DNA from: Verrucomicrobiia bacterium
GTDB taxonomy: Bacteria; Desulfobacterota; Binatia; UBA9968
Direction of reading: 5' to 3'
Assembly: GCA_035495775.1 (NCBI GenBank)
Contig: DATJFG010000133.1
Coordinates: forward strand, 10,178-74,177
DNA length: 64,000 bases
The notes beneath the pieces are model-generated. The model saw nothing but the letters and a program-made list of their open reading frames with translations, did no database searches and was not told the origin of the DNA. The position numbers were made by a program, and so were the translations under genes. How positions within the stretch are numbered: position 1 is the first letter of the stretch; every line of letters begins with the position of its first letter. Shown in pieces: positions 34,214 to 53,501 of the stretch.

Positions 34214-34225
34214 GGAGGTCGGAAC

Positions 34226-36535
34226 ATGAAAACCATCAAGCGGTCCCGCGCGATTATTACCGGCTTGGCGACGTCGGTGGTTCTGGCCTTCAGCGGTCTC
34301 GCCGCGGCGGAGGTCGAATTCGCCGATCTGGTCGCCAGCGGCAGCGCAGAGATCGGTGGCGTCCCCGGCACGAGAACCGGCGGCAATGAGGGGAAATCGA
34401 AGTTCGAGGAATATCGTGAGACCGGCCTCGGCGGCTGGATCGTTCCCGAGCTGCAGTTGTTCCTCGGCGGCAAGAAAAACGACTTCTTCGTCAGCTTCGA
34501 TTCCACCAAGCCGGGTTTCAGGGATCAAAATTATCGCCTCCGCTTCGGCCTCTACGGCCTCCTCGACATCGAGGCGGAATGGGATCAGATCCCGCATCTC
34601 TTCGACGAGGGGATCTCCCGCACGCCCTTCCGCCGCGACGGCGGCACGTTCCATCTGGACGGCAAACCGACCACCAACATTTCAACTTCGGCTCACTGTG
34701 ATGCGCAGCCGGCGACGAATTTTTGCCATTTTCTCGATAAGGGAAATACGCACCCCGTCGATTTGGGGCTGCTCTACGGCATCGGCCGTTTTAAAATCAA
34801 ATACACGCCCCTTCCGGGCTGGACATTAAACGCCGGTTACTGGTCGCAGCACGTCGGCGGCGACCGCGCGTTCGGAACGATATTCGGCACGCCCGGGAAC
34901 TTTTCCGTGGTCGAGCTCCCCGAGCCGATCGACTATCAGATGCACAACGTCGAGCTCGGCGGGGAATACGCGGCAGACTGGTGGTCGGTGGGGCTTAGGT
35001 ATCAGGGCTCGTTCTTCCACAACAACATCAGCACGCTGATTTGGGACAATCCGCTGAACCTCACCGGCGTCGGCGGCGGCTGCTCCGACTCGGCGACCTT
35101 CAGCAATGCCACCAACGGAGTGGACGCCAACCGCGGCCCGTGCCGTGGGCGGCTCGACCTCTATCCCAGCAACCAGGCGCATACGTTCACGCTCACGGGC
35201 GCGGCGACTTTACCCTGGAAGACGCGTTTCATGGGAACCGCCTCCTACGGCTGGCGGCTCCAGGACGACAAGTTTCTTCCCTTCACGATCAATAGCGCGA
35301 TCACCCAGCCGGCCATGTCCGCGCACAGCCTCGACGGGGACGTCCGGCCGACGATGATCAACGCCACGGTCGTCAACAACGCGATCGATCATCTGAACCT
35401 TAAGGCCTACTATCGCTATTTCGATCTGGACAATCAGAGCCGCAGGGTCTCTTTCCCCGACGGCATCGTCATCAACGATCAGGCGGGCACCGCGGTAAGC
35501 CCCAATTGCCCGCCCGCCGGCGCGAGCTGCGGGGACGCCGAGAGAACCAACCGCTACGCCTATTCCAAGCAGAACATCGGCTTCGACGCCGGATATGACT
35601 TGACCCGCTGGCTGACGGTTAAACTCGGAACAGGCTGGGAGAAGATGCATCGGGAATTCCGCGAGGTCAGAAACAGCGATGAATACGGCGTCGGCCCGAC
35701 GGTCGACGTCAAGCCGTTATCGTCGCTTCTGCTCCGCGCGAGCTACCGCCATTCGTGGCGCAACCCCTCTCATTATAATCTCGACGAGGAGAACATCGCC
35801 AAGAAGTTCGACGAGGCGCGACGGAACCGCGACCGCGCGAGTCTCTTCGCGCAATATACACCGTGGGAGATTTTAAACCTCTACGCCGGATTCGAGTTTA
35901 CCAAGGACGATTATCCCGACAGCCGCCTGGGCACTCAATTCGATTTCAATTATTCGCCCTCGGCGGGCTTTGCGCTAATGCCGTACAAATGGCTCAAGTT
36001 TTTCGGCGATTACAATTGGGACCGCTACGACTGGCAGCTCGATGCGATACAACGAAGCGCGGCTTTGGAGACTCCCGACGCCGTGAATTGTCCGAAGAGC
36101 GGACCGACCCGCTGCTGGACGAGCCGCGGCCTGGACCGAGTCCACACGTTGTCGTTCGGCAGCGACGTGACTCTGATTGAAAACGTCCTCGGCTTCCGCA
36201 TCCAGTACGGCTATTCGTTCGGCACCAGCCGAGTGAACGCCTCGGGCGCCACCTGCGGCGGCTGCACCCGGGCGACGAACTATCCGACGATTAACAATAG
36301 CTGGCAAGAGCTGCTCGCCCGTTTTGAATATCAGGTCATGAAGAACGTCGGTTTAAGGGTGGGCTACTACTTCAACCGTGCCCGCGACAACGACCACGGC
36401 GTCGATATCATGAAACCGTGGATGGGCGATGTCGACCCCAGCGCGAGTGTGCAGCATTCTGTGTTTCTCGGCGACCGCATCAAAGGTCCGTTCACGGCGC
36501 ACGTCGGCTTCGTCGCTTTGAAATTCAGTTTCTAG
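34226..36535 (+). CDS. outer-membrane beta-barrel porin of MtrB/MtoB/PioB family
   Basis: Signal peptide, 769 aa, alternating amphipathic beta-strand pattern, C-terminal ...ALKFSF aromatic terminus; AAGGAGG RBS; gene order matches mtrAB/mtoAB/pioAB. Confidence 0.7.
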   Translation: MKTIKRSRAIITGLATSVVLAFSGLAAAEVEFADLVASGSAEIGGVPGTRTGGNEGKSKFEEYRETGLGGWIVPELQLFLGGKKNDFFVSFDSTKPGFRDQNYRLRFGLYGLLDIEAEWDQIPHLFDEGISRTPFRRDGGTFHLDGKPTTNISTSAHCDAQPATNFCHFLDKGNTHPVDLGLLYGIGRFKIKYTPLPGWTLNAGYWSQHVGGDRAFGTIFGTPGNFSVVELPEPIDYQMHNVELGGEYAADWWSVGLRYQGSFFHNNISTLIWDNPLNLTGVGGGCSDSATFSNATNGVDANRGPCRGRLDLYPSNQAHTFTLTGAATLPWKTRFMGTASYGWRLQDDKFLPFTINSAITQPAMSAHSLDGDVRPTMINATVVNNAIDHLNLKAYYRYFDLDNQSRRVSFPDGIVINDQAGTAVSPNCPPAGASCGDAERTNRYAYSKQNIGFDAGYDLTRWLTVKLGTGWEKMHREFREVRNSDEYGVGPTVDVKPLSSLLLRASYRHSWRNPSHYNLDEENIAKKFDEARRNRDRASLFAQYTPWEILNLYAGFEFTKDDYPDSRLGTQFDFNYSPSAGFALMPYKWLKFFGDYNWDRYDWQLDAIQRSAALETPDAVNCPKSGPTRCWTSRGLDRVHTLSFGSDVTLIENVLGFRIQYGYSFGTSRVNASGATCGGCTRATNYPTINNSWQELLARFEYQVMKNVGLRVGYYFNRARDNDHGVDIMKPWMGDVDPSASVQHSVFLGDRIKGPFTAHVGFVALKFSF

Positions 36536-36556
36536 TCAAGAGAGGAAGATAAAATC

Positions 36557-36940
36557 ATGCAATGGATCATCTTGATTGGTGCGTTAGTGATTTTCTCATT
36601 TTCCTCTCCGGCCAGCACATGGGCGCAGTCAAAAGGGGATGCCAACGCTGGAAAAGCAAAATACGAATCTCTATGCGCGGGCTGTCACGGGAAAACAGGT
36701 AAGGGCGACGGCCCGGCGGCGGCGAGCTTGAACCCCAAGCCGCAGGATCATACCGATGGCAAAGTCATGAATGCTCTCAGCGATCAATACCTGACGGACA
36801 TTGTCAAGAACGGCGGCGCATCGGTTAAAAAATCGCCGCTGATGCCCGCGTGGGGCAAGACGTTGAAGGACCAAGAAGTAGCGGATGTAATCGCCTATAT
36901 AAGAAGCTTGGCCAATCCTCCCTACAAGTCGGGGAAATAA
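36557..36940 (+). CDS. monoheme class I cytochrome c (MtoD-like candidate)
   Basis: Signal peptide, single CAGCHG, distal Met region; 127 aa. Confidence 0.8.
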   Translation: MQWIILIGALVIFSFSSPASTWAQSKGDANAGKAKYESLCAGCHGKTGKGDGPAAASLNPKPQDHTDGKVMNALSDQYLTDIVKNGGASVKKSPLMPAWGKTLKDQEVADVIAYIRSLANPPYKSGK

Positions 36941-37065
36941 GGACGCTCTATTCCCTGTCGGCCTGGAACGTTTTCATTCGGCGGCGAATCGACATCGGCG
37001 GCAGCCGCTTGTAATCATCGATCGGCATATTAAAATTACATAGCAGATTCACAGGAGGAATCATC

Positions 37066-37389
37066 ATGAAAATCTTCGTAGCCATGCTTGGTTTTTTCCT
37101 CGCTGCAGCGCTGTCCGGCGTTGGCTGGGCCGCCGATGCCGGCAAGGCTGTGTATGACAAACAGTGCGCCTCGTGCCATGGACCCGACGGCAAGGGGAAT
37201 CCATCGATGGCGAAGGTTTTTGGCGAGAAGCAACTCAACATCGCCACAAAGGAAGTCGCGGATAAGAAAGACGACGAGCTCGTCAAGGTGATTACCGAAG
37301 GTAAAGGCAAAATGCCGGCCGCGGGCAAGTCGCTGAACGCCGCAGATCAAAAAGCCGTCGTAAGCCACGTAAAGTCTCTCGGGAAGTAG
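37066..37389 (+). CDS. monoheme class I cytochrome c
   Basis: Signal peptide, CASCHG; 107 aa; paralog of 46495-46845 product. Confidence 0.8.
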   Translation: MKIFVAMLGFFLAAALSGVGWAADAGKAVYDKQCASCHGPDGKGNPSMAKVFGEKQLNIATKEVADKKDDELVKVITEGKGKMPAAGKSLNAADQKAVVSHVKSLGK

Positions 37390-37417
37390 GCGGCAGCAGG
37401 GGAACAACACGGCCTTG

Positions 37418-38599
37418 ATGATAAAAATCATCGCTGCCGCTGCTGTTCTCCTCTGCTTGGCCAGCGCGGCGTTCGCTCAATCGCTCTTCACTTCGGAGCA
37501 GGATCCGACCGCCGGCGCTCGCGTCTTCGGTGCTAAGGGATGCTCGAATTGCCATAGCATCGAAGGGCTCGGCGGCAAAATCGGCCCCGATCTCGCGCGC
37601 ACCCAGCAAGGCCGCTCGTTTTACGATCTCGCCGCCGCCATGTGGAACCATCTTCCAGGCATGGCGGACAAGATGCGGGAGTTGAAGATCCAGCGGCCGC
37701 TTCTCAGCGCCGAAGATGCGGCCAACCTGATCGCGTTCCTTTTTACGCTCCAGTATTTTGACCGTCCTGGAAATGTCGATGCAGGCAAACGTCTCTTCGC
37801 GGAAAAAAAATGCGTTGTTTGCCATCAACTGAACGGCACCGGCGGCGTCGTCGGCCCGAATCTCGACGGGCTTAAAGATTATGGCTCGCCGCTCTTCATC
37901 GCCGCTGCTATGTGGAATCACGGACCATCGATGGCCGCGGTTATGCGTGAAAAGAGGATTGCACGGCCGTCGTTCAGGGGTTCGGAACTGACCGATCTCA
38001 TCACATATATAAAATCGGCGGCGACGGCGAAAAGCGAGTCGCCGGTGACTGTTTTGACCGGCTCTCCCGAACGCGGCCGGCGACTTTTCGCCGATAAGCA
38101 CTGTCTCGAGTGCCATAGTGTCGCGAGTCAGGGAGGAAAAATCGGGCCGGATCTGGCGGATAAAGCGCTCCACCGAAGCATTCTCGATTTCGCAGCGGCG
38201 ATGTGGAACAAAGCGCCGGCGATGCTCGCGGCGATGAAGACCCGCAAAGTCGCTGCTCCGAGACTAGAACCCGAAGAGATGGCCGACATCGTCGCCTATC
38301 TTTACTCCGTCCAGTACTTTGCGCGCCCGGGCAACGCGAAAAGGGGGCGCGAGATTGCCTCCCAAAAAGGATGCTTTAGCTGCCATGGCGTAGCTGGCGT
38401 CGGGGATAAGTCCGCGCCGAGTTTTTCGCAGATCAAGGACATCGACTCGCCGGCGACCGTGATCGCGGCGATGTGGAATCATTCGTTTCTCACGGATCGA
38501 CCGTTGCAGGGTCAAAAAACGCTTTGGCCGCAGTTTCGTGCCGACGAGATGGCGGATTTGGCGGCCTATTTGCAAACGAGTGGCCGGGGGCCGACATGA
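37418..38599 (+). CDS. tetraheme cytochrome c built from four tandem class-I cytochrome c domains
   Basis: Four ~95-aa repeats, each with CxxCH (CSNCH, CVVCH, CLECH, CFSCH), a GPDL/GPNL turn and an AAAMWNH motif. Confidence 0.8.
   Translation: MIKIIAAAAVLLCLASAAFAQSLFTSEQDPTAGARVFGAKGCSNCHSIEGLGGKIGPDLARTQQGRSFYDLAAAMWNHLPGMADKMRELKIQRPLLSAEDAANLIAFLFTLQYFDRPGNVDAGKRLFAEKKCVVCHQLNGTGGVVGPNLDGLKDYGSPLFIAAAMWNHGPSMAAVMREKRIARPSFRGSELTDLITYIKSAATAKSESPVTVLTGSPERGRRLFADKHCLECHSVASQGGKIGPDLADKALHRSILDFAAAMWNKAPAMLAAMKTRKVAAPRLEPEEMADIVAYLYSVQYFARPGNAKRGREIASQKGCFSCHGVAGVGDKSAPSFSQIKDIDSPATVIAAMWNHSFLTDRPLQGQKTLWPQFRADEMADLAAYLQTSGRGPT
37480..38590 (+). repeat. 4x intragenic tandem repeat (~285 nt units) encoding cytochrome c domains
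   Basis: Repeated protein blocks G(A/E)(R/K)..F..K.C..CH......G.(I/V)GP(D/N)L....FAAAMWN. Paralogous at protein level, nucleotide divergence substantial. Confidence 0.6.
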
Positions 38600-39849
38600 G
38601 CGCTTTGCGCGCATACGGAGTGTTTTTGTGTTTCGTTTTCCTGGGGCTCGCTGCCTTGTCGTCGGCGGCCGAACCGGAGAGTTGCGTCGCCTGCCATCAA
38701 GCGATCGGCGTACCCAAGCTCACCCAGCCGGTCAAAGATTTTCCCCAGGACATCCACGCAGTCAAGGGGTTTGGCTGTGTCGCCTGTCACGGCGGCGACG
38801 CCAAAGACCCCGGCATGACGGCCATGGACAAGACCAAAGGCTTCATCGGCGCGCCGACGCGAAAAGATCTTCCACAGGTGTGCGGACATTGTCATTCCGA
38901 TGCGCGTTTCATGCGGCAATACAATCCATCCCTGCGCGTCGATCAGGTTGCGGAGTATTACACCTCGGTCCACGGCCAGCGGCTCGCGCGCAACGGCGAC
39001 GAAAAGGTCGCGGTTTGCACGAGCTGTCACCCGGCGCACTCGATCCGTCCGCCGTCGGACCCGCGCTCCTCGGTCCATCCGCTGAAGGTCGCCGACACGT
39101 GCGGCCGGTGTCACGCCGATGCGAAGTACATGGAGAGCTACAAGATCCCGACCGACCAGCTGCCCAAATATAAAAAGAGCGTGCACTGGCGGATGATGTC
39201 GGCCGGCGGCGATCTCTCCGCGCCCACGTGCAACGATTGCCACGGCAATCACGGCGCCGCGCCGCCGGGAGTCTCTTGGGTCGGGAATGTCTGCGGCCAG
39301 TGCCACGCGCAAAACGAAGAGCTGTTCAGCAAAAGCGTTCACTCCAAAGCATTCGTCAAAATGGGCATTCCCGGCTGCGCCACCTGTCATTCAAACCACG
39401 AGATCGTCCCGCCGAGCGACGCGATGCTCGCGGTCGGCGAGGGCGGCGCCTGCGCGGGTTGTCACACCGCCGAAGACAACGGCGGCAAGACCGCTCTGGA
39501 GATGCATCGGCAGATCGATGCGCTGAGAAACGCCTACGACAAGGCGCATGCCGCTCTGGCGAAGGCTGAGTCTGCCGGCATGGAAGTCAGCCAGCCGCAG
39601 TTTGAACTGAACGGCGCCAAGACCGCGCTCGTCAAGTCGCGCGCGGCAGTGCATGCGTTCAACATCGACGCAGTCAAAAAAGAAGCCGCGCCCGGCATCG
39701 ATATCAGCGGAAAAGTCTATGCCAGGGGCGTCAAAGCGCTCGATGAATTGCAATTCCGCCGCAAGGGGCTCGCGGTCTCCGCGCTGATCATCGCCGGGTT
39801 GATCGTCGGCCTGGTCTTGAAAATACGAGAGATGGAGAAGCCGAAGTGA
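38596..39849 (+). CDS. nonaheme c-type cytochrome with C-terminal membrane anchor
   Basis: Signal peptide; 9 CxxCH; C-terminal TM helix GLAVSALIIAGLIVGLVL; ATGA overlap with upstream gene. Confidence 0.8.
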   Translation: MSALRAYGVFLCFVFLGLAALSSAAEPESCVACHQAIGVPKLTQPVKDFPQDIHAVKGFGCVACHGGDAKDPGMTAMDKTKGFIGAPTRKDLPQVCGHCHSDARFMRQYNPSLRVDQVAEYYTSVHGQRLARNGDEKVAVCTSCHPAHSIRPPSDPRSSVHPLKVADTCGRCHADAKYMESYKIPTDQLPKYKKSVHWRMMSAGGDLSAPTCNDCHGNHGAAPPGVSWVGNVCGQCHAQNEELFSKSVHSKAFVKMGIPGCATCHSNHEIVPPSDAMLAVGEGGACAGCHTAEDNGGKTALEMHRQIDALRNAYDKAHAALAKAESAGMEVSQPQFELNGAKTALVKSRAAVHAFNIDAVKKEAAPGIDISGKVYARGVKALDELQFRRKGLAVSALIIAGLIVGLVLKIREMEKPK

Positions 39850-39875
39850 GAGATTCCAACGCCTCAGGAGATAAC

Positions 39876-40331
39876 ATGTCCGACGGAACACTCGATCCGC
39901 GAATCGACCGGAGAAACTTCTTAAACTGGTTTCTAGGTACGACGGCAGGCGCTTTTCTCGTCGCGGTTCTGTACCCGCTGAGCCGCTACCTTATCCCTCC
40001 AAAGGTCGAGGAGTCGACCGCCAAGAATGTTACACTTTCGATCAAACCCGGCGACGTCAAAGTCAACAGCGGCGAGATTTTCCGCTTCGGCAACCAGCCG
40101 GCGATTTTGGTTCGGACCCCCGCCAACGAGCTCAAAGCGTTCTCGGCGGTCTGCACGCATCTGTCCTGTATCGTTCAATACCGATCGGACCTGAGCCATA
40201 TCTGGTGCGCGTGCCACAACGGCCACTATGATCTCAACGGTAAAAATATCATCGGCCCGCCGCCCAAGCCGCTCGAAGCATACACCGTCAACGTCAAGGG
40301 CGACCAGATCGTTGTGAGCAAGACGGCGTGA
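39876..40331 (+). CDS. Rieske [2Fe-2S] iron-sulfur subunit of a cytochrome bc-type complex
   Basis: Tat motif RRNFLNW, TM helix, CTHLSC...CACHNGHY Rieske boxes; ATG at 39876 with AGGAGA RBS preferred over GTG at 39846. Confidence 0.85.
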
Positions 40332-40336
40332 CGCTT

Positions 40337-41434
40337 ATGGAACCGACGACGGAAAAGCACGGCAAGCTCTGGAACTGGTTCGACGCGCGCGTCGGACTGA
40401 AAGATTTGGACAAGCTTGCCAAAAAAAAGCAGGTACCGCTGCACAGGCACAGTTCGTGGTACTACTTCGGCGGCATGACGCTGTTTCTCTTCACGGTTCA
40501 GGTGATCACGGGCATCTTGCTGCTACTGTACTATCGGCCGAGCTCAGGCGAGGCCTACGAATCGGTGCAATTTCTCATGACGGAAGTCGAGTTCGGCTGG
40601 CTCGTCCGGTCGATTCACGCGTGGTCCGCCAATCTGATGATCTTTACGCTGTTCGTCCATCTGTTCAGCACGCTGATGCTCAAGGCGTACCGCCAACCGC
40701 GGGAGCTGACCTGGCTTTCCGGCATGGGCTTGATGGCTCTGACATTGACGTTCGGTTTTACCGGTTACCTGCTCCCGTGGAACAAGCTCGCGTTCTTCGC
40801 CACCAGCGTCGGGACGGAAATCCCCGGGGTTCTGCCGGTCGTGGGCGCGTTTCTCCGCAGACTGCTTCGCGGCGGCGATGAGGTAACGGGCGCCACGCTG
40901 ACGCGGTTTTACGGCATCCACGTCGCCGTCCTTCCTGCGCTCGTTTCCTCGCTGATCGGCGTCCATCTCTTTTTGGTGCAAAAGCATGGCATGAGCGTTC
41001 CTCCGAGCGTCGCCGGGCAGGCGAGCCCGCCGCGAACGATGCCGTTCTTTCCCAACTTTTTCCTGCGTGACGCGGTCGGCTGGCTCTGCGCGCTGGCGGT
41101 GCTTGCGACGCTGGCGGCGTTCTATCCGGCGGAGCTCGGCGAGAAGGCCGACCCGTTTCAGCCGGCGCCGATCGGTATCAAGCCTGAATGGTATTTCATG
41201 TTCATGTTCCAGACGTTGAAGCTGCTGCCGAGCTACATCCTCGGCATCGAAGGCGAGCTCGTGGGTATTCTCGCATTCGGCGCAGGGGGGCTGTTTCTCG
41301 CGCTGATTCCGTTCCTCGATCGTGCATCGGCACGCGGCGAGCGCAGCCAGCTTTTTGTCTGGATCGGCAGCGCGATCATTCTTTACATGCTGGTTTTAAC
41401 TTATCTGGGATACACGATGAGCGCGACAAAGTAG
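40337..41434 (+). CDS. cytochrome b (b6/subunit IV fused type) of bc complex
   Basis: [11 protein letters not shown]-terminus like b6 YDWFEERL; heme-ligand His in TM helices ([22 protein letters not shown]); PEW-like loop LLPWN; 366 aa. Confidence 0.85.
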
Positions 41435-41463
41435 CTTGTACGTATCGTTGAACGCAGGACAAG

Positions 41464-42570
41464 ATGAAAACGGCCGAGTCCATTTCAATCATCGTCGTCT
41501 TCTTCGGTGCGGTTTTTCTCATCTCCTCGATTTCTTTCGCTCAGACTATCGCGTTTCCGAAAGATTGTGTCAGTTGCCACGGTTCCGAAGCGAAATATCC
41601 GGTACGCGGCGTGCGCAGCCAGTATCTGACTTCCGGCCATCGAACCATCGGCAACGCCTCGTACGCCAACGCCGACGATTGTCAGGGTTGTCATACGAAC
41701 GAAGGATTTATCGACAGGGCGAAGACCGGGAAGGTCGATACCAAGAAATACGTACGCTATCCATCGGAAATCGGCTGCTTCACCTGCCACGCTCCGCACG
41801 ACAGAGGCGACTTCTCGTTGCGTAAGACGACGGCTGTCACGCTCGCCAACGGCACCACCTACGACCGAGGCAAAAGCAATTTATGCGCGAGTTGCCATCA
41901 AGCCCGGCGCACAGCCAAAGAAGAAGTGAAGGCGCGAGTCATCCCGAGCGACAGCTGGGGCGCTCACCATGGGCCGCAAGCGGATATGCTTCTCGGCACG
42001 AATGCGTATGAGTACTCGGGAAAGAAATATTCCAAATCACCACACGCGGTTTTATCCAACGCCGACTGTATCACCTGCCACATGGCCCTCCCGAACGGAC
42101 GCTATTCGCTCGCCCCTTCGATCGGCGGGCACAGCTTTAATGTCGCAGGCGAGGTGCACGAACGGCCGACGGTCAACGCGGCGGGATGCCTGTCGTCAGG
42201 CTGCCATACGGAGATGAAACAGATCGAAGGAAAACCCTTCTTCGATCGCAAGGCAGCGGCGGATTACGATGGCAACGGCAAAATCGAAAGCATCCAAGAA
42301 GAAGTGCAAGGGCTCCTTAACAAGCTCATCAACGAGCAAGGCACCGGCCTTTTGCAGACGATGAAAAATCCTCCCTACGACGCAAAAGGAAAATTTATCG
42401 AGAATAAGGTTTCGTATCCCGTCGAGGTCACGGCGGCTCTTTACAATTACAAATTCGTCAAAGAAGACGGCAGCCGAGGGATCCACAATACTACATACGC
42501 CGTCGAGCTCTTGATCGATTCCATCCACGCGTTGAACAAAGATTTCGACGATTCCAAACGGCCGCAATAA
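41464..42570 (+). CDS. hexaheme c-type cytochrome subunit of the bc complex
   Basis: Signal peptide; CVSCH, CQGCH, CFTCH, CASCH, CITCH plus non-canonical CLSSGCH (CX4CH). Confidence 0.75.
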   Translation: MKTAESISIIVVFFGAVFLISSISFAQTIAFPKDCVSCHGSEAKYPVRGVRSQYLTSGHRTIGNASYANADDCQGCHTNEGFIDRAKTGKVDTKKYVRYPSEIGCFTCHAPHDRGDFSLRKTTAVTLANGTTYDRGKSNLCASCHQARRTAKEEVKARVIPSDSWGAHHGPQADMLLGTNAYEYSGKKYSKSPHAVLSNADCITCHMALPNGRYSLAPSIGGHSFNVAGEVHERPTVNAAGCLSSGCHTEMKQIEGKPFFDRKAAADYDGNGKIESIQEEVQGLLNKLINEQGTGLLQTMKNPPYDAKGKFIENKVSYPVEVTAALYNYKFVKEDGSRGIHNTTYAVELLIDSIHALNKDFDDSKRPQ

Positions 42571-42600
42571 AAGGCCGGCCGAGAAGTCGGCGGATCGTCA

Positions 42601-44565
42601 ATGAGGGTTTGTGTGAGTAGGCATTGGTTTGCTGTGATCCTCGCAGTTTGTTTCTTCGCGTCGCTTTTTTCGCTGTCAGTCGTGCATGCAGCGGAACCTT
42701 TAGCGAAGGAAGTCTGTCTTTCGTGCCATGGCGCGCCGGGATTGGAAAAAACGCGCGACGGCAAGACCGTCTCCTTGCAGGTCGACGGGGACGCTTTTGA
42801 GCACTCCGTGCACGCTCCTTTCGGGTGCGTGACGTGTCACAGCGACATCAGCGCCATCCCGCATTCACCGCAATTAAAGCCGGTGGATTGTAGCGCCTGC
42901 CACGCCGAAGCCATCAAAGTTTTCTCGCAGAGCGTTCACGGTAAGGCGCGGGCCAACGGAGCAGCCGAAGCGCCGACGTGCAAGAGCTGTCACGGCGACC
43001 TCCACCGCGTCAAACGAAGTTCCGAGCCGGACGCGCGAACTTATCGCACGAACATTCCGAACGTGTGCGCGTCGTGCCACGCCGATGAGAAGATTGCGCA
43101 GAAATTCCGCATCCCGATCGTCCGTCCGGTCGAGGCGTATCTAAAAAGCGTGCATGCGCGTGCCGTTGCCGCCGGCAGAAACGGCGCCGTCTGCACCGAC
43201 TGCCACGGCTCGCACGGCATTGAGCCCGGATGGGACCCGACTTCTTCCGTATGGCGGATCAGCATTCCGGCGACCTGCGGCAAATGCCATGAGCAGATCC
43301 AGACGGCATACCGCGAGAGCGTTCACGGGGTGGCGCTCGCTCGCGGAGTGCGCGAAGCTCCGGCTTGCACCGACTGTCACGGAGAACATCGCATTCTGGC
43401 GCCGAGCGAACCGCAGTCGCCCGTATTCGCCGCCAACATTCCCGGTGAAACCTGCGGCCGCTGCCACGGCGACGCGCGCCTGAGCGAGAAATACGGGATT
43501 CCCATCGACAAGGTTCGAGCCTATCAGGACAGCTATCACGGACTCGCCTTGCGCGGCGGCAAGGTCACCGTTGCCAATTGTTCGAGCTGTCACGGCGTGC
43601 ACGATATCAGAGCGTCTTCGGATCCGCGCTCGCATGTTAACGCGAAAAACCTGCCGCAGACTTGCGGCAAGTGCCACCCGGGGGCCGGTCTCGTTTTGGC
43701 GCTCACACGCGTGCACGTCCTGCCGACCGAGTCGGACCCGGTGCTTTATTGGATTCGCTTCATTTATCTCTGGATCATCGGCCTCGTCATCGGGGGCATG
43801 CTGATTCACAACTTGATCGACCTTGTGAAAAAAGCGCGCAGCGAAATTCCGCATCATGCCGAGATCGTCCCGACGTCCGAACGGATGCCGCGCCAGCTCC
43901 GCTGGCAGCACGGTCTCGTCATGGTGAGTTTTCCTTTGCTGGTCTATACCGGCTTCGCTCTCACGTATCCGGAAACCTGGTGGGCCACGCCGCTGGTCCG
44001 CTGGGAGGCTCAAGTGGGAATCCGCGGCCTTCTGCACCGCATTGTCGCGTGCATCCTTGTCGCGTCTCTTTTGTGGCACGGGATATCTATTGCCCGCAGT
44101 CCAAGACTGCGCGAATGCCTGCTGCGCTCAATCATGTTCCGGTTCCAGGATATACGGGATATGATCCGGCTCCAGCGTTACAATCTCGGATTTGATTCCG
44201 AACGGCCGCGGTTCGGTAAGTTCAGTTACATCGAAAAAGCCGAGTACTGGGCATTCATGTGGGGCATGATATTGATGACCGTCACCGGAGTGCTTCTGTG
44301 GTTCAACAATACGACCCTGCGCTACCTGTCGAATTGGATCACCGACATCGCGACTGCTCTTCACTTCTACGAAGCCGTTCTGGCGACCCTCGCAATCCTG
44401 GTCTGGCACTTCTATTGGACGATGTTCGATCCTGAGGTTTATCCGATGGACGCAAGCTGGTGGCACGGCCGCGCGCCGGCCGCCCGCGAGGCGGAACGCC
44501 ATGAGCCGATATCGCCTCCGGTTGAGGGGAAAGAAACGCCGAATCCGCCACTCGATAGAAAATAA
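42601..44565 (+). CDS. CbcL-like fusion: periplasmic multiheme (11 CxxCH) cytochrome c domain + C-terminal diheme cytochrome b (HydC/FdnI-type) membrane domain
   Basis: 11 CxxCH in the N-terminal 370 aa. This is followed by 4-5 TM helices with conserved His (HNLIDL, WWHG...) typical of Ni/Fe-hydrogenase or Fdh gamma b-type cytochromes. Confidence 0.75.
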   Translation: MRVCVSRHWFAVILAVCFFASLFSLSVVHAAEPLAKEVCLSCHGAPGLEKTRDGKTVSLQVDGDAFEHSVHAPFGCVTCHSDISAIPHSPQLKPVDCSACHAEAIKVFSQSVHGKARANGAAEAPTCKSCHGDLHRVKRSSEPDARTYRTNIPNVCASCHADEKIAQKFRIPIVRPVEAYLKSVHARAVAAGRNGAVCTDCHGSHGIEPGWDPTSSVWRISIPATCGKCHEQIQTAYRESVHGVALARGVREAPACTDCHGEHRILAPSEPQSPVFAANIPGETCGRCHGDARLSEKYGIPIDKVRAYQDSYHGLALRGGKVTVANCSSCHGVHDIRASSDPRSHVNAKNLPQTCGKCHPGAGLVLALTRVHVLPTESDPVLYWIRFIYLWIIGLVIGGMLIHNLIDLVKKARSEIPHHAEIVPTSERMPRQLRWQHGLVMVSFPLLVYTGFALTYPETWWATPLVRWEAQVGIRGLLHRIVACILVASLLWHGISIARSPRLRECLLRSIMFRFQDIRDMIRLQRYNLGFDSERPRFGKFSYIEKAEYWAFMWGMILMTVTGVLLWFNNTTLRYLSNWITDIATALHFYEAVLATLAILVWHFYWTMFDPEVYPMDASWWHGRAPAAREAERHEPISPPVEGKETPNPPLDRK

Positions 44566-44603
44566 GCGGACGAGGGATCGACAAAAAGGAAGGATAAGTC
44601 TTA

Positions 44604-46412
44604 GTGAATCAATATCTAAGAAGACTGATTAGCCATCCGGTGAGCCTCGCCGGCGCGATCCTCGTCATTTTCAGCTTTCTGTCGATCGTCTCGATGCTGA
44701 TGATCGAGGCGGTCATAGGAAGACCGAATCCCTACGCCGGGCTCTTCGTTTACATGGTTTATCCCGGCCTGCTGATCTTGGGACTCGTTCTCATGCCGGT
44801 CGGCTTCTTCCTCGAACGCAAGCGCCGGGTGGTCGTCGGCGAAGCGCCGCCGTTCCCGCGTATCGATCTGAACGACGCGCGAACCCGCGCCACCTTCGTC
44901 ATTCTGGCAGGAGCGGCGTTTGTCGTCGTGGTTCTCATCTCGACGATCAGCTATCAGGCGTACCATTTTACCGAGTCGGTCTCCTTCTGCGGCGAGCTCT
45001 GTCATTCGGTCATGAATCCCGAATACACGGCGTACCAAGCCTCGCCGCACTCGCGCGTCGCCTGCGCGGATTGCCATGTCGGCCCAGGGGCGACCTGGTG
45101 GGTACGCTCGAAGCTCGCCGGCATGTACCAGATCTATTCGGTCGTGTTCAAACAATATCCGAAGCCGATCGCGACGCCGGTGCACAGCCTGCGTCCCGCG
45201 CGCGAAACCTGCGAGCAATGTCACTGGCCGGAGAAATTCTTCGGCGCTCAGATGAAGGTCATCAATCGCTTCGGCTACGACGACCGCAACACTGCGCGCC
45301 AGATTCAAATGCTCATCCGCACCGGCGGCGGCAGTCCGACGACCGGTATTACCGCCGGCATTCACTGGCACATGAACATAGCGAACGTGGTGTACTATGG
45401 CGCCGCCGACGCGCACCGGCAAAAGATTCCTTGGGTTTGGATCAAAGATCCTCAGGGCAGGGTGACGGAATATTTCGACACCAGCGCATCGCTCAAGCCT
45501 GATGAATGGAAACAGCTCGAGATCCGACGCATGGACTGCGTCGACTGCCACAATCGTCCCTCGCACATCTTCCGCGATCCGGACGCGGCGGTCGACAATG
45601 CGCTTTTCGTCGGGCTCATCGACCGGGGGCTGCCGTTTATCAAGCGCGAGGCCGTCAGGGTCTTGAGCCAGAGCTATCCCAGCCGTGAAAAGGCCCTCGA
45701 GGGAATCGCCACCATGCTCGATGCGTACTATGTCAAAGAGTTTCCGAAATTATATAAGGAGAAAAACGAGGCCGTTAAAAAAGCGATCAGCGAGACGCAA
45801 AAGATCTACGAGGTCAACTTCTTCCCCGAAATGAAAGTCGACTGGCGCACGCACCCCGACAATATCGGCCATACGCTCTATCCGGGTTGCATGCGGTGCC
45901 ACGACGGCAAGCACGTGAGCCGCGAAGGCAAGGTGATCCGCAATGAGTGCCAGCTCTGTCATACGATCATCGGTCAGGAAACTCAGGTGCGCAATCCGAC
46001 CGAAGTCCAGGCGGCGGAAAAGTTCAAGCATCCGTGGCCGCTCATGGGCAAGCACGCGCAGCTCACCTGCAACAGCTGCCATTTGCGCGGGCGCGGCTTA
46101 ACGCCCGAGTGCTCGACCTGTCATGTCCGTCCCGCCGATGCGCCAATGGCGTCGTTCCCGTGCGGACAATGTCATTTAAAGGAGCAAAGCGTTCAGCCGA
46201 CGCAGAACTGCGCGACATGCCATCCATCGCGAGCCGGACTCCATGTGAAGGCAACCCATTCGGCGGCTCCGTGCGTGACCTGTCACATCCCGCACGAATG
46301 GAAAGTGGCGAAGCGAGAGCCCTGTCTCGCCTGCCATACCGATAAAGCGGAGCATAATGCTCCTGTGGCATGCCGTGACTGTCACAGCTTCCGGCCGGCC
46401 GCCAAGACATGA
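44604..46412 (+). CDS. inner-membrane multiheme cytochrome c (13 CxxCH), NapC/NirT/ImcH-like N-terminus
   Basis: Three N-terminal TM helices, then CGELCH...CADCH and 11 more CxxCH; GTG start with AAGGAAGGA RBS. Confidence 0.75.
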   Translation: MNQYLRRLISHPVSLAGAILVIFSFLSIVSMLMIEAVIGRPNPYAGLFVYMVYPGLLILGLVLMPVGFFLERKRRVVVGEAPPFPRIDLNDARTRATFVILAGAAFVVVVLISTISYQAYHFTESVSFCGELCHSVMNPEYTAYQASPHSRVACADCHVGPGATWWVRSKLAGMYQIYSVVFKQYPKPIATPVHSLRPARETCEQCHWPEKFFGAQMKVINRFGYDDRNTARQIQMLIRTGGGSPTTGITAGIHWHMNIANVVYYGAADAHRQKIPWVWIKDPQGRVTEYFDTSASLKPDEWKQLEIRRMDCVDCHNRPSHIFRDPDAAVDNALFVGLIDRGLPFIKREAVRVLSQSYPSREKALEGIATMLDAYYVKEFPKLYKEKNEAVKKAISETQKIYEVNFFPEMKVDWRTHPDNIGHTLYPGCMRCHDGKHVSREGKVIRNECQLCHTIIGQETQVRNPTEVQAAEKFKHPWPLMGKHAQLTCNSCHLRGRGLTPECSTCHVRPADAPMASFPCGQCHLKEQSVQPTQNCATCHPSRAGLHVKATHSAAPCVTCHIPHEWKVAKREPCLACHTDKAEHNAPVACRDCHSFRPAAKT

Positions 46413-46443
46413 AAGGGGGGCGAAAAAATGTAAAATTGAAGTG

Positions 46444-46481
46444 TTGACACCGGTTGTGCGTCTAATTATTGGGTTTATAAA
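46444..46481 (+). promoter_or_regulatory. possible sigma70-type promoter (TTGACA / TTGTGC ... TATAAA) upstream of monoheme cytochrome gene
   Basis: TTGACA at 46444 and TATAAA at 46476; spacing ambiguous. Confidence 0.25.
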
Positions 46482-46494
46482 CGGAGGTGAAACC

Positions 46495-46845
46495 ATGCAT
46501 ATTTTTAGTGCGAAAGCGGCGGCGGCCACTTTGGCCCTGGCATTTGCGGTTTCTTTGACGTGGGTTTCGACGGCGGGCGCCGGCGAAGCCAAAGCTGGGA
46601 AAGCCCAGTACGATAAGCTCTGTACTTCATGTCACGGCGCCGACGGCAAGGGAAACCCGGCGATGGCGAAGTCGATGGGAGAAAAGGGGTTGAACCTTAC
46701 GACCAAAGAAGTCAAAGACGCCAAAGACGAAGAACTCATAAAAGTCATTACCGAAGGCAAGGGCAAAATGCCGGCATCGGGCAAGAGCCTGAGCAAGTCG
46801 GAGCAGAAGGAAGTTGTCGAGTACGTACGGTCGTTGGGAAAGTAA
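46495..46845 (+). CDS. monoheme class I cytochrome c (paralog of 37066-37389)
   Basis: Signal peptide, CTSCHG, KVITEGKGKMPA block shared with the 37066 gene; RBS GGAGGTG. Confidence 0.8.
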   Translation: MHIFSAKAAAATLALAFAVSLTWVSTAGAGEAKAGKAQYDKLCTSCHGADGKGNPAMAKSMGEKGLNLTTKEVKDAKDEELIKVITEGKGKMPASGKSLSKSEQKEVVEYVRSLGK

Positions 46846-46882
46846 AAACGGCAGTTCGTCCGTATTCGTGCGTGATTTCCGG

Positions 46883-46918
46883 GGCAAGCACCGCTGCAGT
46901 TTGATTGCGGTGCCTGCC
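46883..46918 (+). terminator. stem-loop after cytochrome operon (11/12-bp GC-rich stem, 12-nt loop), no clear U-tract
   Basis: GGCAAGCACCGC tgcagtttgatt GCGGTGCCTGCC. Confidence 0.3.
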
Positions 46919-47049
46919 CCAATCCCACTCAGCCGAATCCTCAGCTCAAAAACGCGTCTCTAGATTCCGATCAAGTTGTTGACAACCCCCGCGCCTTAGC
47001 TTTAGGCTCACTTTCGTTCGTGATCGTTTTCCTTGCGGCTGAGACAACA

Positions 47050-48393
47050 ATGTCGCGCAAAATTCTCATTGTCGACGACGAGCCCTTCAATTTGGACGTT
47101 CTCGAGCAGGAGCTCGGCGACCGCGGTTATTCGATCGAAAGGGCGGCCGATGGCGCCGCCGCGCTCGCTCAAACGGAATCGCTTCGTCCCGACCTCATTC
47201 TTCTCGATTATCAGATGCCAGACATGAACGGCATCGAAGTCATGAAAGAGCTTAGGAGTCGCGGCAACGAAGCGCCGGTAATCATGCTCACCGCGTATGG
47301 AACGATCGAGCGGGCGGTTCTGGCGATGAAGGGAGGCGCCTACGATTTCGTCACCAAGCCGTTTGATCCCGATCATTTGCTCCTCGTCGTCGAAAAGGCC
47401 CTGGAGCGGGAGACACTGAGGACGGAGATCGGAATTCTTTCCGACGAAGTCGGCGAGCGGCACCACCTCGTCGTCGGTAAGAGCAAGAAAATGACGGAGA
47501 TCGCGGACGCTGCGAAACAGGCCGCGTCAAGCAAAGCCACGATCCTGCTCCTCGGCGAGAGCGGCACCGGAAAGGAGATCTTCGCGCGGGCCATCCATCA
47601 TTGGAGCGAGCGAAAAGATAAATCTTTCGTGGCGATTAATTGTGTCGGCCTCTCCAAGGAACTGCTGGAAAGCGAGCTGTTCGGTCACGAGAAGGGGGCT
47701 TTTACGGGCGCGCATCAGCTGAAGAAGGGAAAAATGGAGCTGGCCGACGGCGGCACCGTTTTTCTCGACGAGGTCGGCGACATTACCCCCGAGCTTCAGA
47801 CCAAACTCCTCCGCTTTCTTCAGGAGCGGGAGTTCGAGCGTGTCGGAGGCGGCCGCTCGATATCCGTCGACGTGCGGATCATCGCGGCCACCAACCGGAA
47901 CCTCGAAGAGGATGTGAGGCAGGGCCGCTTCCGCGAAGATCTCTATCATCGTCTCAACGTCGTGCCGCTCGTCTTGCCGCCGCTCCGTGAACGAAAGGAA
48001 GACATTCCGGAGCTCGCCAACTATTTTCTTCACCGCTTTGCCAGAGAGACCAAGAAAAAGTTCGACGCCGTCACTGACGAAGCGTTGGCGTGTCTCTGCG
48101 CGTATTCGTGGTCGGGCAATGTCCGCGAACTTGCGAACGTGATCGAGCGGGGCGTCGTCCTCGGTCGGGGCTCTCGGTTAGATGTTGCCGATCTCCCCGC
48201 GCGGATCACTGGCGCCTTGTCGCCCCCGCCGCAATCCAGCGCCTCTTACCATGAAGCGATCGACGCCGCGCGGCGCGAGCTGGTCCAAAGGGCGCTCGTC
48301 CGAGCCCAAGGCAACCGCACCGAGGCGGCGAAGCTACTTGGTATGCATAAGACCCACCTATTCCGATTAATAAAAGCGCTCGGCATCGAGTGA
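47050..48393 (+). CDS. NtrC-family sigma54-dependent response regulator (REC + AAA+ + HTH)
   Basis: REC domain with DD...D...K residues, GESGTGKE Walker A, GAFTGA motif, C-terminal Fis-like HTH; 447 aa. Confidence 0.9.
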   Translation: MSRKILIVDDEPFNLDVLEQELGDRGYSIERAADGAAALAQTESLRPDLILLDYQMPDMNGIEVMKELRSRGNEAPVIMLTAYGTIERAVLAMKGGAYDFVTKPFDPDHLLLVVEKALERETLRTEIGILSDEVGERHHLVVGKSKKMTEIADAAKQAASSKATILLLGESGTGKEIFARAIHHWSERKDKSFVAINCVGLSKELLESELFGHEKGAFTGAHQLKKGKMELADGGTVFLDEVGDITPELQTKLLRFLQEREFERVGGGRSISVDVRIIAATNRNLEEDVRQGRFREDLYHRLNVVPLVLPPLRERKEDIPELANYFLHRFARETKKKFDAVTDEALACLCAYSWSGNVRELANVIERGVVLGRGSRLDVADLPARITGALSPPPQSSASYHEAIDAARRELVQRALVRAQGNRTEAAKLLGMHKTHLFRLIKALGIE

Positions 48394-48523
48394 AGCATTT
48401 CCGCTACGCCCAGTAGCTAAGCCGCTACCACGGCACGAGCACTGGCCTCGGCCGGCATCGACACCCTTCAAGAATCCGCCGTTATTTTCATGACTTGACT
48501 TAGGTCAACCGCTCGCGTCATTG

Positions 48524-48539
48524 TGGCACGGCCATTGCG
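48524..48539 (+). promoter_or_regulatory. sigma54 promoter TGGCAC-ggcca-TTGCG
   Basis: Perfect -24/-12 consensus; 100 nt upstream of the SBP/sensor-kinase cluster; palindrome TTGACTTAGGTCAA 18 nt upstream. Confidence 0.6.
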
Positions 48540-48641
48540 CCAGATTGGGGTAGAGAAAACGTATCTTTGCAGTAACCTTGATGATCATGGGGATAAATCT
48601 GCTCCGCCTACATGGTCTGAGGACGGTGAGGATGAGGGAAG

Positions 48642-49623
48642 ATGAATAGAAAAATTATCTTTGCCGTGCTCGCGGTTTTTCTCGTAGCGCATTGTGCTCC
48701 GGCGCAGGCGCAGCCGGCGGGGAAAATCCCACGCATCGGATTTCAGCTCGATGCTCCTGACTCCGTAACTTCTGGCCGCATCGATGGATTCCGGCAAGGT
48801 CTCCGCGAGCTTGGCTATGTCGAGGGCAAGAACATCTTCATCGAGTGGCGCTCCGCCGAAGGCAATTCCGAGCGCCGCGGCGACATCGCCGCCGAGCTGG
48901 CACGCCTGAAGCTTGACGTCATCGTCTCCGCCGGGCCGATCGTGACTCGTGCTCTCAAAGAAGCGACTTCCTCGGTGCCGATCGTCATGGGTCAGGATAC
49001 CGATCCCGTCGGCAGCGGCTTCGTCGCCAGTTTGGCGAAACCCGGCGGAAACATCACGGGATTATCGGCGCTGGCGCCGGAGATGAGCGGCAAACAGCTC
49101 GCGCTGATGAAAGAAATCGTTCCCAGGCTCTCGGACATAGCGATCATCGGCAATTCGACCATCCCCGGCGACGCGGAAACGCTGAGAGAGACCGTGCTCG
49201 CCGCGGGATCGTTCGAGGTCTACTTGCGCTATCTCGACGTTCTCGACCCCAAGGAGGTCGGGGCCGCGTTCCAAGCCGCGGCGAAAGGGCGCGCCGACGC
49301 GCTGCTCGTGTTAGGGAACCCGATCCTCAACTCCCAGCGCAAGCAGGTCGTCGAGCTCGCGGCAAAGCATCGCCTGCCGGCGTCGTACGGCCGGCCGGAA
49401 TACGTCGAGGCTGGCGGGCTATGTATTACGGCACGAACTACAACGACTTGTTCCGCCGCGCCGCTTACTACGTCGATAAGATTCTCAAAGGCGCCAAGCC
49501 TGGCGACCTTCCCGTCGAGCAGCCGACCAAGTTCGAGCTCGTGATCAATTTGAAAGCGGCCAAGCAGATCGGCTTACGATTCCGCCGCGGGTGCTGGCGA
49601 CGGCGGACAAGGTGATCAAATGA
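48642..49623 (+). pseudogene. PF04392 (ABC_sub_bind) family substrate-binding protein gene disrupted by two single-base deletions
   Basis: Frame 1 loses homology after ...EAGGL near 49420. The conserved C-terminus [50 protein letters not shown] continues in frame +1 (49421-49570). The final [16 protein letters not shown] requires a second 1-nt shift at ~49575 (ttacg vs ttaacg). Confidence 0.55.
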
Positions 49624-50621: not shown

Positions 50622-50693
50622 CTTCATCATTCAAGTGCGGAGTCCCTGCGTAGAATGCGCCGGGTGAAATGTTGATTTCGGTAGAGTAAGATC

Positions 50694-53484: not shown

Positions 53485-53501
53485 AACCAAGGAAAGCAAA
53501 C

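Follow-up and report, generated by a model that had tools for sequence, protein, structure and literature searches.

The window examined here is a 64,000-nucleotide (nt) stretch of contig DATJFG010000133.1 (GenBank assembly GCA_035495775.1, a genome placed in the Binatia). Its segment 37418–46845 consists of eight co-directional open reading frames (ORFs) on the plus strand and belongs to a respiratory gene cluster of ~15 kb (31770–46845, all genes on the plus strand), which we read, with about even confidence, as two nested units: a conduit across the outer membrane and a quinone hub in the inner membrane. Domains were called with Pfam and NCBIfam profiles and structural homologues were taken from PDB matches; gene starts were adjusted using homologues, and transmembrane (TM) segments come from a simple hydropathy scan and one AlphaFold2 model (the b domain of a CbcL-like protein, five long helices). 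Each domain assignment of the initial annotation was reproduced with Pfam and NCBIfam. Its interpretation fared less evenly: the gene identities largely stand, the role it gave to a hexahaem cytochrome probably does not, and a single operon is what we infer from the sequence.

The segment carries 44 c-haem motifs in 9.4 kb: four in a four-domain cytochrome (tetraC), nine in a nonahaem cytochrome (nonaC), five CXXCH and one CX4CH in the hexahaem cytochrome (hexaC), 11 in the CbcL-like protein, 12 CXXCH and one CX3CH in an ImcH-like protein, and one in a terminal monohaem cytochrome (c1c). Adding an MtrA-like protein (10) and two further monohaem cytochromes brings 33251–46845 to 56 motifs, so the ~56 motifs first ascribed to the segment are those of the 13.6-kb cluster. 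This density is far above that of shuffled proteins (mean 0.5 motifs, maximum 3; 500 shuffles, each protein keeping its amino-acid composition).

The conduit unit centres on a periplasmic decahaem protein of the MtrA/MtoA/DmsE family (33251–34213, 10 CXXCH) and an outer-membrane beta-barrel of the MtrB/PioB family (34226–36535), whose genes are adjacent, 12 nt apart. The decahaem protein scored 254 bits against the DmsE/MtrA model TIGR03508 (cutoff 192), and its top PDB match was the MtrA chain of Shewanella baltica (6r2q_A, E 2e-58). The barrel scored 295 bits against Pfam MtrB_PioB and 246.5 bits against TIGR03509 (cutoff 240). With both models passed, the porin-cytochrome pair noted earlier upstream on the same strand is confirmed. 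A six-frame count found 54 CXXCH in the cluster, three in 1–33250 and none in 46846–64000; no further multihaem ORF, and hence no MtrC or OmcA, was found in the 64-kb window. Within the window, the conduit is thus of the two-component MtoAB/PioAB type.

Directly upstream of the MtrA-like gene, and outside the coordinates of the initial annotation, lie two cupredoxin genes (31770–33124) that probably belong to the same unit; cup1 is probably the first gene of the transcription unit. Cup1 (31770–32510) is a cupredoxin-like protein with a C-x2-H-x2-M copper-site motif, a signal or anchor sequence and a C-terminal Pfam CarboxypepD_reg domain. Cup2 (32507–33124) is a plastocyanin/amicyanin-type cupredoxin (Pfam Copper-bind, E 1.4e-7) that likewise has the C-x2-H-x2-M motif and a C-terminal CarboxypepD_reg-type domain; in the PDB it matches plastocyanin, amicyanin and the cupredoxin domain of a Cu nitrite reductase. 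Homologues of cup2 occupy the same position in two related loci (84% identity in L001, 77% in L002), and L002 has a counterpart of cup1, a CarboxypepD_reg gene cut by the end of the locus (35% identity by tblastn). In another locus, L086, a cup2-like gene lies ~9.6 kb upstream of an ImcH-like gene.

The cluster also encodes seven class-I c domains with Met-ligand motifs. Three are monohaem proteins of the CcoP/c6/c552 kind with the Met in an (L/K)MPA motif: c1a (36557–36940; one CXXCH, Met in LMPAW), c1b (37066–37389; GKMPA, Pfam Cytochrome_CBB3 via its paralogue, PDB matches to CcoP, c6 and c552) and c1c (46495–46845; Pfam Cytochrome_CBB3, E 2e-14), the last gene of the cluster and the final monohaem c of the initial annotation. 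C1b appears to be a periplasmic carrier. It is 72% identical to c1c, so that paralogues stand on either side of the inner-membrane genes; c1a and c1b are only 33% identical. C1c also follows the ImcH-like gene in L001–L003, L084 and L087. In L001, L002 and L084 a single monohaem gene separates MtrB from tetraC, c1a and the following 125-nt gap being absent; this stretch of the window (36557–37065) resembles a recent insertion, with c1a as a lineage-specific extra copy. The remaining four domains are the tandem class-I domains of tetraC (37418–38599), which the annotation had called a four-domain tetrahaem c: each of the four CXXCH is followed by AAMWN[HK], and Pfam Cytochrom_C matches in four stretches (E 1e-38). 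TetraC is weakly similar to Geobacter ExtS and precedes nonaC in L001–L003, L084 and L087.

The hub opens with nonaC (38596–39849), which has nine CXXCH, a haem-free linker of ~100 residues and a C-terminal TM segment (392–410), as expected of the C-terminally anchored nonahaem cytochrome first proposed; this architecture was identical in all eight homologues examined. The Rieske [2Fe-2S] protein (39876–40331; Pfam Rieske, E 1e-10, and TM_PetC) has an N-terminal anchor, a Tat-type N-terminus (RRNF at 22) and both cluster boxes with their disulfide cysteines (CTHLSC at 103, CACH at 121). Its box II reads CACHNGHY, with the Ser of the high-potential CPCHGSxY replaced by Gly and the Tyr kept, a combination that goes with lower-potential, menaquinol-oxidising Rieske proteins. 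The cytochrome b (40337–41434) fuses a b6-like N-terminal part to a subunit-IV-like C-terminal part; its top PDB match is cytochrome b6 (1q90_B, E 1e-57), its haem ligands have b6-type spacing (H97-x13-H111, H198-x14-H213) and a Qo-site PEWY lies at 286. The cysteine that binds haem ci is absent, Phe occupying the Cys35 position in the 1q90_B alignment (WYYFGG vs FYCIGG). The protein is thus b6-like in spacing, yet not a haem-ci cytochrome b6. The Rieske and b6-like cytochrome b pair recognised earlier is borne out by these features.

Which multihaem protein is the c subunit of this complex? The initial annotation had chosen hexaC (41464–42570), the protein with a CX4CH motif, in which we count five CXXCH and one CX4CH. 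The haem-motif residues and eight further His of hexaC are invariant in 45 homologues. Its family comprises 665 matches of 65–86% identity, ~368 residues long throughout and all named 'hypothetical'. The gene stands alone among unrelated genes in L088 (10001–11098) and L089 (10001–11107) and is missing in L003, L087 and the acidobacterial loci. Judged from these matches, hexaC is a narrow, highly conserved family, usually encoded by a stand-alone gene, and a lineage-specific insertion in the cluster of the window. Its AlphaFold2 model (mean predicted local distance difference test score 52) was below use for a fold search, and a sequence match to HAO was insignificant (E 0.07).

NonaC behaves differently. 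An exhaustive search returned matches in 606 clusters at 50% identity (E<=1e-30). NonaC always adjoins the Rieske and cytochrome b genes: in nine loci of a species-level scan (among the matches listed), in L003 and L087, and in L001, L002, L084 and L085; in the acidobacterial gene order it follows cytochrome b. Moreover, three database proteins (P0424, P0449 and P0489) are cytochrome b, 39–48% identical to that of the window, fused to a nonahaem domain; they carry a full or partial cytochrome b, and gene-calling artefacts are possible. A fourth candidate, P0366, proved on examination to be no such fusion. Because of the invariant synteny, the cytochrome b fusions and the stand-alone occurrence of hexaC elsewhere, nonaC rather than hexaC is likely the c1-equivalent, membrane-anchored c subunit of the Rieske/cytochrome b complex.

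The CbcL-like protein (42601–44565) has 11 CXXCH at residues 39–355 behind a signal-like segment, as do 115 of the 120 closest homologues, and, at its C-terminus, a dihaem cytochrome b domain of the HydC/FdnI type. This domain keeps each of the four histidines that bind haem in FdnI, whose loss would have spoken against the proposed CbcL architecture. A crude hydropathy scan gave an N-terminal segment and four TMs, and the AlphaFold2 model five long b-domain helices. By architecture and haem ligands, the protein appears to belong to the CbcL/MtrH/MtoC family, described as having 3–23 CX2CH in its periplasmic haem domain (PMC6295460); with 11 haems within this range, it is an ordinary member. 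Its haem motifs recur at 97/127/156/198, 226/256/285/327 and 355, an exact spacing of 129 residues, suggesting that the periplasmic domain is built of tandem four-haem modules. At the DNA level, 42929–42998 and 43316–43385, 387 nt apart, are 71% identical. Besides the FdnI-equivalent ligands, H403 and H493 are invariant in 32 homologues; H403 lies in an extra TM helix ahead of the FdnI-like bundle, H493 in the same helix as H479 (+14 residues), and the two could be ligands of a third cofactor or residues that line a site for quinone.

The ImcH-like protein (44604–46412, 602 residues) combines three TMs (16–34, 52–70 and 97–115), a CX3CH motif (CGELCH, 129–134) fourteen residues past the third TM, and 12 CXXCH. 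It matches NapC/NirT (Pfam PF03264, E 1e-8), NrfH (TIGR03153, E 1e-13) and the NrfH structure 2j7a_C (E 3e-6), consistent with the predicted 13-haem NapC/ImcH-like inner-membrane cytochrome. In Geobacter sulfurreducens ImcH, His137 and Gln179 are reported to ligate haem 1, and E127, K173 and Y188 to be conserved residues of the quinol site (10.1101/2023.05.03.539133). The protein of the window has E124, K170, Q176 and Y185 around H134, at offsets (−10, +36, +42, +51) identical to those of the G. sulfurreducens protein, residues being equated by spacing and not by alignment to GSU3259. The [ED]-K-Q-[YF] pattern is kept in 114 of 116 homologues. Residues 1 to ~499 form a canonical 6+1 haem ImcH; 503–590 carry six more haems, set close together, and show a weak resemblance to small tetrahaem cytochromes of the STC type. 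The published description of the family gives 5–9 CX2CH, with six in Geobacter (PMC6295460), and the 12 CXXCH found here fall outside it. Among the 120 closest homologues, however, 79 have 12+1 motifs, 19 have 6+1 and 15 have 15+1, so the protein is an extended but common variant.

The hub set, namely the Rieske/cytochrome b/nonahaem trio with an ImcH-like protein, a CbcL-like protein and a monohaem c, is conserved across phyla with exchangeable neighbours. It occurs in Acidobacteriota and in metagenome-assembled genomes (MAGs) labelled Binatia, Deltaproteobacteria, NC10 and Zixibacteria, with MtrAB as its neighbour in some cases and an unrelated porin-like protein or a Qrc-like complex in others. 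The CbcL-like and ImcH-like families each number >8000 candidates; the nearest named relatives, 61–73% identical, come from MAGs labelled Deltaproteobacteria, Binatia, Acidobacteria and Zixibacteria. In the species-level scan (one genome per species), relatives among the matches listed were all <=50% identical and mostly from Acidobacteriota. Of 80 CbcL-like loci among these matches, 48 have a same-strand ImcH-like gene within 5 kb, 40 a monohaem c and 15 an MtrA-like decahaem; eight, mostly from Acidobacteriota, combine all five main hub genes, in the order Rieske-cytochrome b-nonaC-(c)-ImcH-CbcL. Among the listed matches in NC10-labelled MAGs, the trio was seen in L077 only.

Three kinds of surroundings were found: (i) L001, L002, L084 and L085 share the gene order that starts at the cupredoxin and ends at the final monohaem c, with proteins 76–96% identical and one monohaem gene fewer than the window (c1a is missing); (ii) L003 and L087 (~62% identity) have two tetraC genes, nonaC, Rieske, cytochrome b, CbcL, ImcH and a monohaem c, and neither MtrAB nor hexaC; and (iii) L013 and L019, from Acidobacteriota, have a decahaem gene and an ORF of 840–905 residues ahead of c-Rieske-cytochrome b-nonaC-c-ImcH-CbcL. 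These last ORFs (L013 1894–4611, L019 1561–4083) carry a signal peptide and, at the C-terminus, the residues ...LSVRYAF, as is typical for barrels of the outer membrane; they showed no MtrB homology by phmmer or blastp and no Pfam match, and may represent an undescribed porin family for porin-cytochrome conduits. Since a decahaem gene and a non-MtrB outer-membrane-type ORF precede the hub there, the design of the window seems to have been rebuilt in L013 and L019 with an unrelated outer-membrane protein. In L003 (1–5708) and L087 (1–5747), an Mo/FeS/NrfD complex, an 85-residue ORF and an extra cytochrome with four class-I c domains lie directly upstream of the hub. The best matches of the complex are QrcB/C/D, under NCBIfam cutoffs, and its NrfD subunit scores higher against DsrP than against Qrc. 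Because of the QrcB/C/D matches we rejected a role as terminal reductase and take it to be another quinone-interacting complex; with this set adjoining the hub, the two loci would hold genes for four quinone-interacting complexes, each different, one after another. Qrc-like Mo/FeS/NrfD complexes are related to alternative complex III. The window thus appears to be one well-preserved example of a widespread arrangement and no unique oddity.

The genes of the cluster are closely packed. The gaps 36941–37065 (125 nt) and 46413–46494 (82 nt), given in the initial annotation as the largest, are exactly that, and the remaining junctions in 33251–46845 run from −4 to 38 nt; the series contains two 4-nt overlaps. 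The three larger internal gaps have no unusually stable structure (z +0.5 to +0.9), and scans for sigma-70 promoters and terminators gave nothing convincing inside the cluster. A hairpin with a 13-bp stem (46880–46920, plus strand) begins 35 nt past the last stop codon (100-nt stretch, −37.8 kcal/mol, z −3.0); as it has no U-tract, its role as terminator is only a suggestion. An imperfect sigma-54-like site, cGGCATaaagcTTGCT at 31739–31754(+), lies 16 nt ahead of the cup1 start codon; the window holds 24 matches to the sigma-54 pattern vs 22.7 expected, that is, no enrichment. Taken one by one, the intergenic promoter-like TGGCAT-N5-TTGCT sites of the sigma-54 type appear plausible; they occur at 8281–8296(−), 10074–10089(+), 14428–14443(−), 19766–19781(+) and 31739–31754(+), and the window encodes two sigma-54 activators, one at 8976–9974 and a response regulator at 47050–48393, downstream of the cluster. 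An Rfam scan of 30900–47200 returned no RNA families.

A periplasmic nitrate reductase cluster (25013–30985) lies ~2 kb upstream of the cytochrome genes. It contains a VIT1-family iron/manganese transporter (25013–25822), a 665-residue Fer4_5 (NapH-like) protein (26287–28284), a NapA equivalog (1072 bits; true start near residue 93 of ORF 28050–30680) and NapB (30653–30985); an oppositely oriented Usp gene (31067–31543) lies between the two clusters. Elsewhere, 4961–8228, 16679–18331 and 21369–25002 encode among them a BcrAD/BadFG ATPase accompanied by two HGD-D subunits (of the benzoyl-CoA reductase or the 2-hydroxyacyl-CoA dehydratase type), a decarboxylase of the UbiD family and a 2-oxoacid:ferredoxin oxidoreductase made up of two genes. 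Such neighbours (BcrAD/HGD, PFOR-like, UbiD) are of an anaerobic heterotroph type and fit the need for an electron sink. The host is an uncultured bacterium, probably from soil or groundwater. Further downstream, an ABC_sub_bind gene (48642–49640) shows two apparent frameshifts near its 3' end, where homology to its paralogue (49620–50621) continues first in frame 2 and later in frame 1; the cause is either decay to a pseudogene or an error in sequencing.

Every protein family in the cluster is already known, and the arrangement can be compared with several described systems. The mto/mtr clusters of Gallionella ES-2, Dechloromonas RCB, Sideroxydans ES-1 and Rhodoferax combine, as does the window, an MtrA-type decahaem, an MtrB/PioB porin, one or more monohaem class-I c and a CbcL/MtoC-type fusion (PMC6295460; PMC5566968). 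Like the window, they have no MtrC. The window adds to this set the Rieske/cytochrome b/nonahaem complex, the ImcH-type protein, the hexahaem c, the four-domain class-I c and two cupredoxins, and its host, unlike these examples, is no betaproteobacterium. In the 2018 survey, mtrAB or mtoAB adjoined no imcH gene (PMC6295460).

The hub shares two protein families with the ImcH/CbcL/CbcBA system of G. sulfurreducens, in which parallel routes are used according to acceptor potential. Geobacter ImcH likewise has three TMs, a CX3CH and E/K/Q/Y around haem 1, and Geobacter CbcL likewise joins a multihaem c to an FdnI-type dihaem b domain. The Geobacter proteins have 7 and 9 haems and work with the low-potential trihaem PpcA, whereas those of the window have 13 and 11 haems, a fused 6-haem tail on ImcH, and class-I monohaem c and Rieske/cytochrome b as conserved neighbours. 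In Geobacter the ImcH and CbcL genes lie at separate loci, whereas in the window they are adjacent.

A parallel in gene order is the Geobacter extHIJKLMNOPQS cluster, described as encoding a porin-like protein, large multihaem cytochromes, a 10-haem ExtN, the Rieske protein ExtO, cytochrome b ExtP, the subunit-IV-like ExtQ and the 4-haem ExtS (PMC5877670). The order tetraC-nonaC-Rieske-cytochrome b mirrors ExtN-O-P-Q plus ExtS, and the NCBIfam models of ExtP and ExtS were the best or second-best matches for the window proteins. Scores remained under the equivalog cutoffs (ExtP 210.7 vs 290, ExtS 60.6 vs 100, ExtQ 16.5 vs 150), so by this measure the window proteins are not Ext members, although the organisation is similar. 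In the window, cytochrome b is fused (P+Q), the porin is of the MtrB and not the ExtI type, and neither a rhodanese nor a selenoprotein is present; the ext cluster, unlike the window, has no ImcH or CbcL genes. The rus/petI system described for Acidithiobacillus ferrooxidans follows the same logic of outer-membrane cytochrome, cupredoxin, class-I c and bc complex (PMC5566968), a likeness by role only. There, Cyc2 stands in place of MtrAB, and multihaem wires and ImcH/CbcL modules are missing. Anammox Rieske/cytochrome b complexes combine a b6-like cytochrome b with multihaem c subunits instead of monohaem c1 or f. Unlike these complexes, the cluster of the window has no NAD(P)-oxidoreductase or HAO-like subunit. 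In the open-access literature we found described neither an imcH homologue inside an mtrAB cluster, nor the recurrent ImcH-like/CbcL-like adjacency with Rieske/cytochrome b/nonahaem genes across phyla, nor a 13-haem form of ImcH.

How might these parts work together? Gene content, cofactor ligands, family signatures and the conservation of the hub establish a protein set that can move electrons among quinone pool, periplasm and the outside of the outer membrane; the make-up of the complexes, co-transcription, direction of flow and use as gears are inferred. The MtrAB/MtoAB-type porin-decahaem conduit would cross the outer membrane without MtrC, served by carriers of high-potential type, the two cupredoxins and seven class-I c domains. 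The hub would provide three parallel routes of electron exchange between the (mena)quinone pool and the periplasm: (i) the Rieske/b6-like cytochrome b complex with anchored nonaC as its c subunit; (ii) an ImcH-type, NapC/NirT-like quinol dehydrogenase extended by its fused 6-haem wire; and (iii) the CbcL/MtoC-type 11-haem, dihaem-b protein, CbcL being the Geobacter route at low acceptor potential. The parts that interact with quinone are, respectively, the Qo-site PEWY motif and b haems of cytochrome b, the haem-1 site of ImcH, which is NrfH-like, and the dihaem b domain that resembles FdnI. By default the hub would oxidise quinol, electrons passing through multihaem wires and monohaem carriers to MtrAB and possibly also to other periplasmic reductases.

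The three modules could then serve as gears that differ in energy yield and driving force, co-expressed and selected by acceptor potential rather than by transcription, as has been proposed for Geobacter ImcH, CbcL and CbcBA. The Rieske/cytochrome b complex would be the proton-motive route and would need an acceptor well above the quinol potential, since bc chemistry is proton-motive and has that requirement. G. sulfurreducens ImcH is described as a menaquinol oxidase that reduces periplasmic cytochromes and is electroneutral, electrons and protons both going to the periplasmic side, and its haems titrate between −350 and −150 mV (10.1101/2023.05.03.539133). Whether Geobacter requires ImcH or CbcL is reported to depend on what reduction potential the acceptor has (PMC5877670, PMC6295460), and mtoC and mtrH genes are reported to cluster with mtoAB/mtrAB (PMC6295460). 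Two potential branches are suggested by the contrast between bis-His multihaem wires on one side and His/Met class-I domains with type-1 copper proteins on the other; the sequences suggest that nonaC, hexaC, the ImcH tail, the 11-haem domain and MtrA are wires of low-potential type.

Outward flow is favoured because ImcH is linked only to metal reducers, because gears suit varied acceptors and because the neighbouring genes are those of an anaerobic heterotroph. Several points weigh against it. The direction is ambiguous, as the lack of MtrC, the class-I His/Met cytochromes, the cupredoxins, the Rieske/cytochrome b pair and the MtoC-type protein are features that models of Fe(II) oxidisers use (PMC5566968). 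Carriers of high potential would donate electrons poorly to a decahaem of low potential. Some hub loci, moreover, have no porin-cytochrome genes in the surrounding DNA, so that the hub may be a general quinol:cytochrome c interface and not a device for extracellular electron transfer. Finally, sigma-70-like hexamers lie in both the 125-nt and the 82-nt gap, so internal promoters are possible. On balance we give outward or bidirectional use of the cluster about an even chance.

The best-surviving alternative uses the same hardware for net inward flow, extracellular Fe(II), reduced humics or minerals being oxidised through an MtoAB-like conduit. Monohaem c and the cupredoxins would carry the electrons. 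A downhill branch would end at a reductase or oxidase of the periplasm, such as the upstream NapAB, and an uphill branch would use the MtoC-type protein and a Rieske/cytochrome b complex run in reverse to reach the quinone pool. The FdnI-type b domain would suit transfer from the periplasm to a cytoplasmic-side quinone, which is the path that electrons take through the b domain of Fdn-N. The window has no MtrC-like gene (three CXXCH outside the cluster in any frame), and the seven Met-ligand class-I domains and two type-1 copper proteins speak for this direction, as do the NapA equivalog and NapB just upstream and the nearby VIT1 iron transporter. The order MtrA-MtrB-monohaem c ... MtoC-type parallels mtoABD(C) as published (PMC6295460; PMC5566968), and cupredoxins, class-I c and a bc complex recall the Acidithiobacillus rus/petI models. 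However, published accounts so far tie the ImcH family solely to the oxidation of quinol in metal reducers (PMC6295460), reverse flow alone hardly explains three parallel quinone modules, the oppositely oriented Usp gene separates the nap genes from the cluster, and the neighbourhood resembles that of an anaerobic heterotroph; no carbon-fixation or oxidase genes were seen in the 64-kb window, which is too short to judge. Net inward flow is possible but less probable.

Could the locus instead be a respiratory island of independent adjacent modules and not one pathway? The Rieske/cytochrome b complex, class-I c and cupredoxins would then serve aerobic or denitrifying chains and the ImcH- and CbcL-like proteins other periplasmic reductases, with MtrAB as an add-on. 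Most hub loci lack MtrAB, and those of L003 and L087 adjoin a Qrc-like complex; hexaC and c1a are lineage-specific insertions, and the promoter-like sites of the two largest gaps would allow separate units. Many hub-bearing genomes, moreover, bear the label Terriglobia or Acidobacteriaceae, and both groups have aerobic heterotrophs among their members. The very tight spacing with its two 4-nt overlaps argues otherwise, as do the gene order, conserved in full between MtrA and the final monohaem c at 76–96% protein identity in four independent contigs, the independent joining of a decahaem/outer-membrane protein pair to the hub in Acidobacteriota, and the paralogous monohaem c genes that flank the hub on both sides. 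We consider such an island unlikely. Least probable is the bc composition first proposed, Rieske, cytochrome b and the CX4CH hexahaem c as in anammox bacteria with nonaC as a separate carrier: hexaC does lie 29 nt behind cytochrome b, the usual petC/c1 position, in the window, L001, L002 and L084, and its N-terminal hydrophobic segment could be an anchor, but it is absent from all other hub loci (L003, L087, acidobacterial and NC10-labelled) and monocistronic in L088 and L089, whereas the acidobacterial loci place nonaC directly after cytochrome b, and three database proteins fuse the two.

Extracellular electron transfer is known almost wholly from Shewanella, Geobacter and a few iron oxidisers, and far less from the abundant, uncultured or little-studied soil lineages and their links between the quinone pool and iron, manganese and humics. 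We tentatively propose that the hub set is an unrecognised respiratory 'gearbox', widespread in abundant bacteria of soil and groundwater that are uncultured, among them Acidobacteriota and Binatia-like lineages. The proteins of the set would cooperate, possibly as a supercomplex, in a two-way exchange with extracellular iron, manganese and humics, with the energy yield tuned to the potential of the partner, and unrelated porin-cytochrome conduits would have been recruited to it repeatedly. If the hub merely consists of alternative complex-III-type enzymes, the finding would be useful for annotation and otherwise ordinary. The locus and the shared hub give a concrete, testable parts list, and the adjacent ImcH-like/CbcL-like pair, with or without the Rieske/cytochrome b/nonahaem trio, offers a better metagenomic marker. 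Since it places the genes of three quinol-oxidising enzymes that differ in coupling efficiency next to one another, the hub would also be a natural system that bears on the old question of how energy conservation is matched to acceptor potential.

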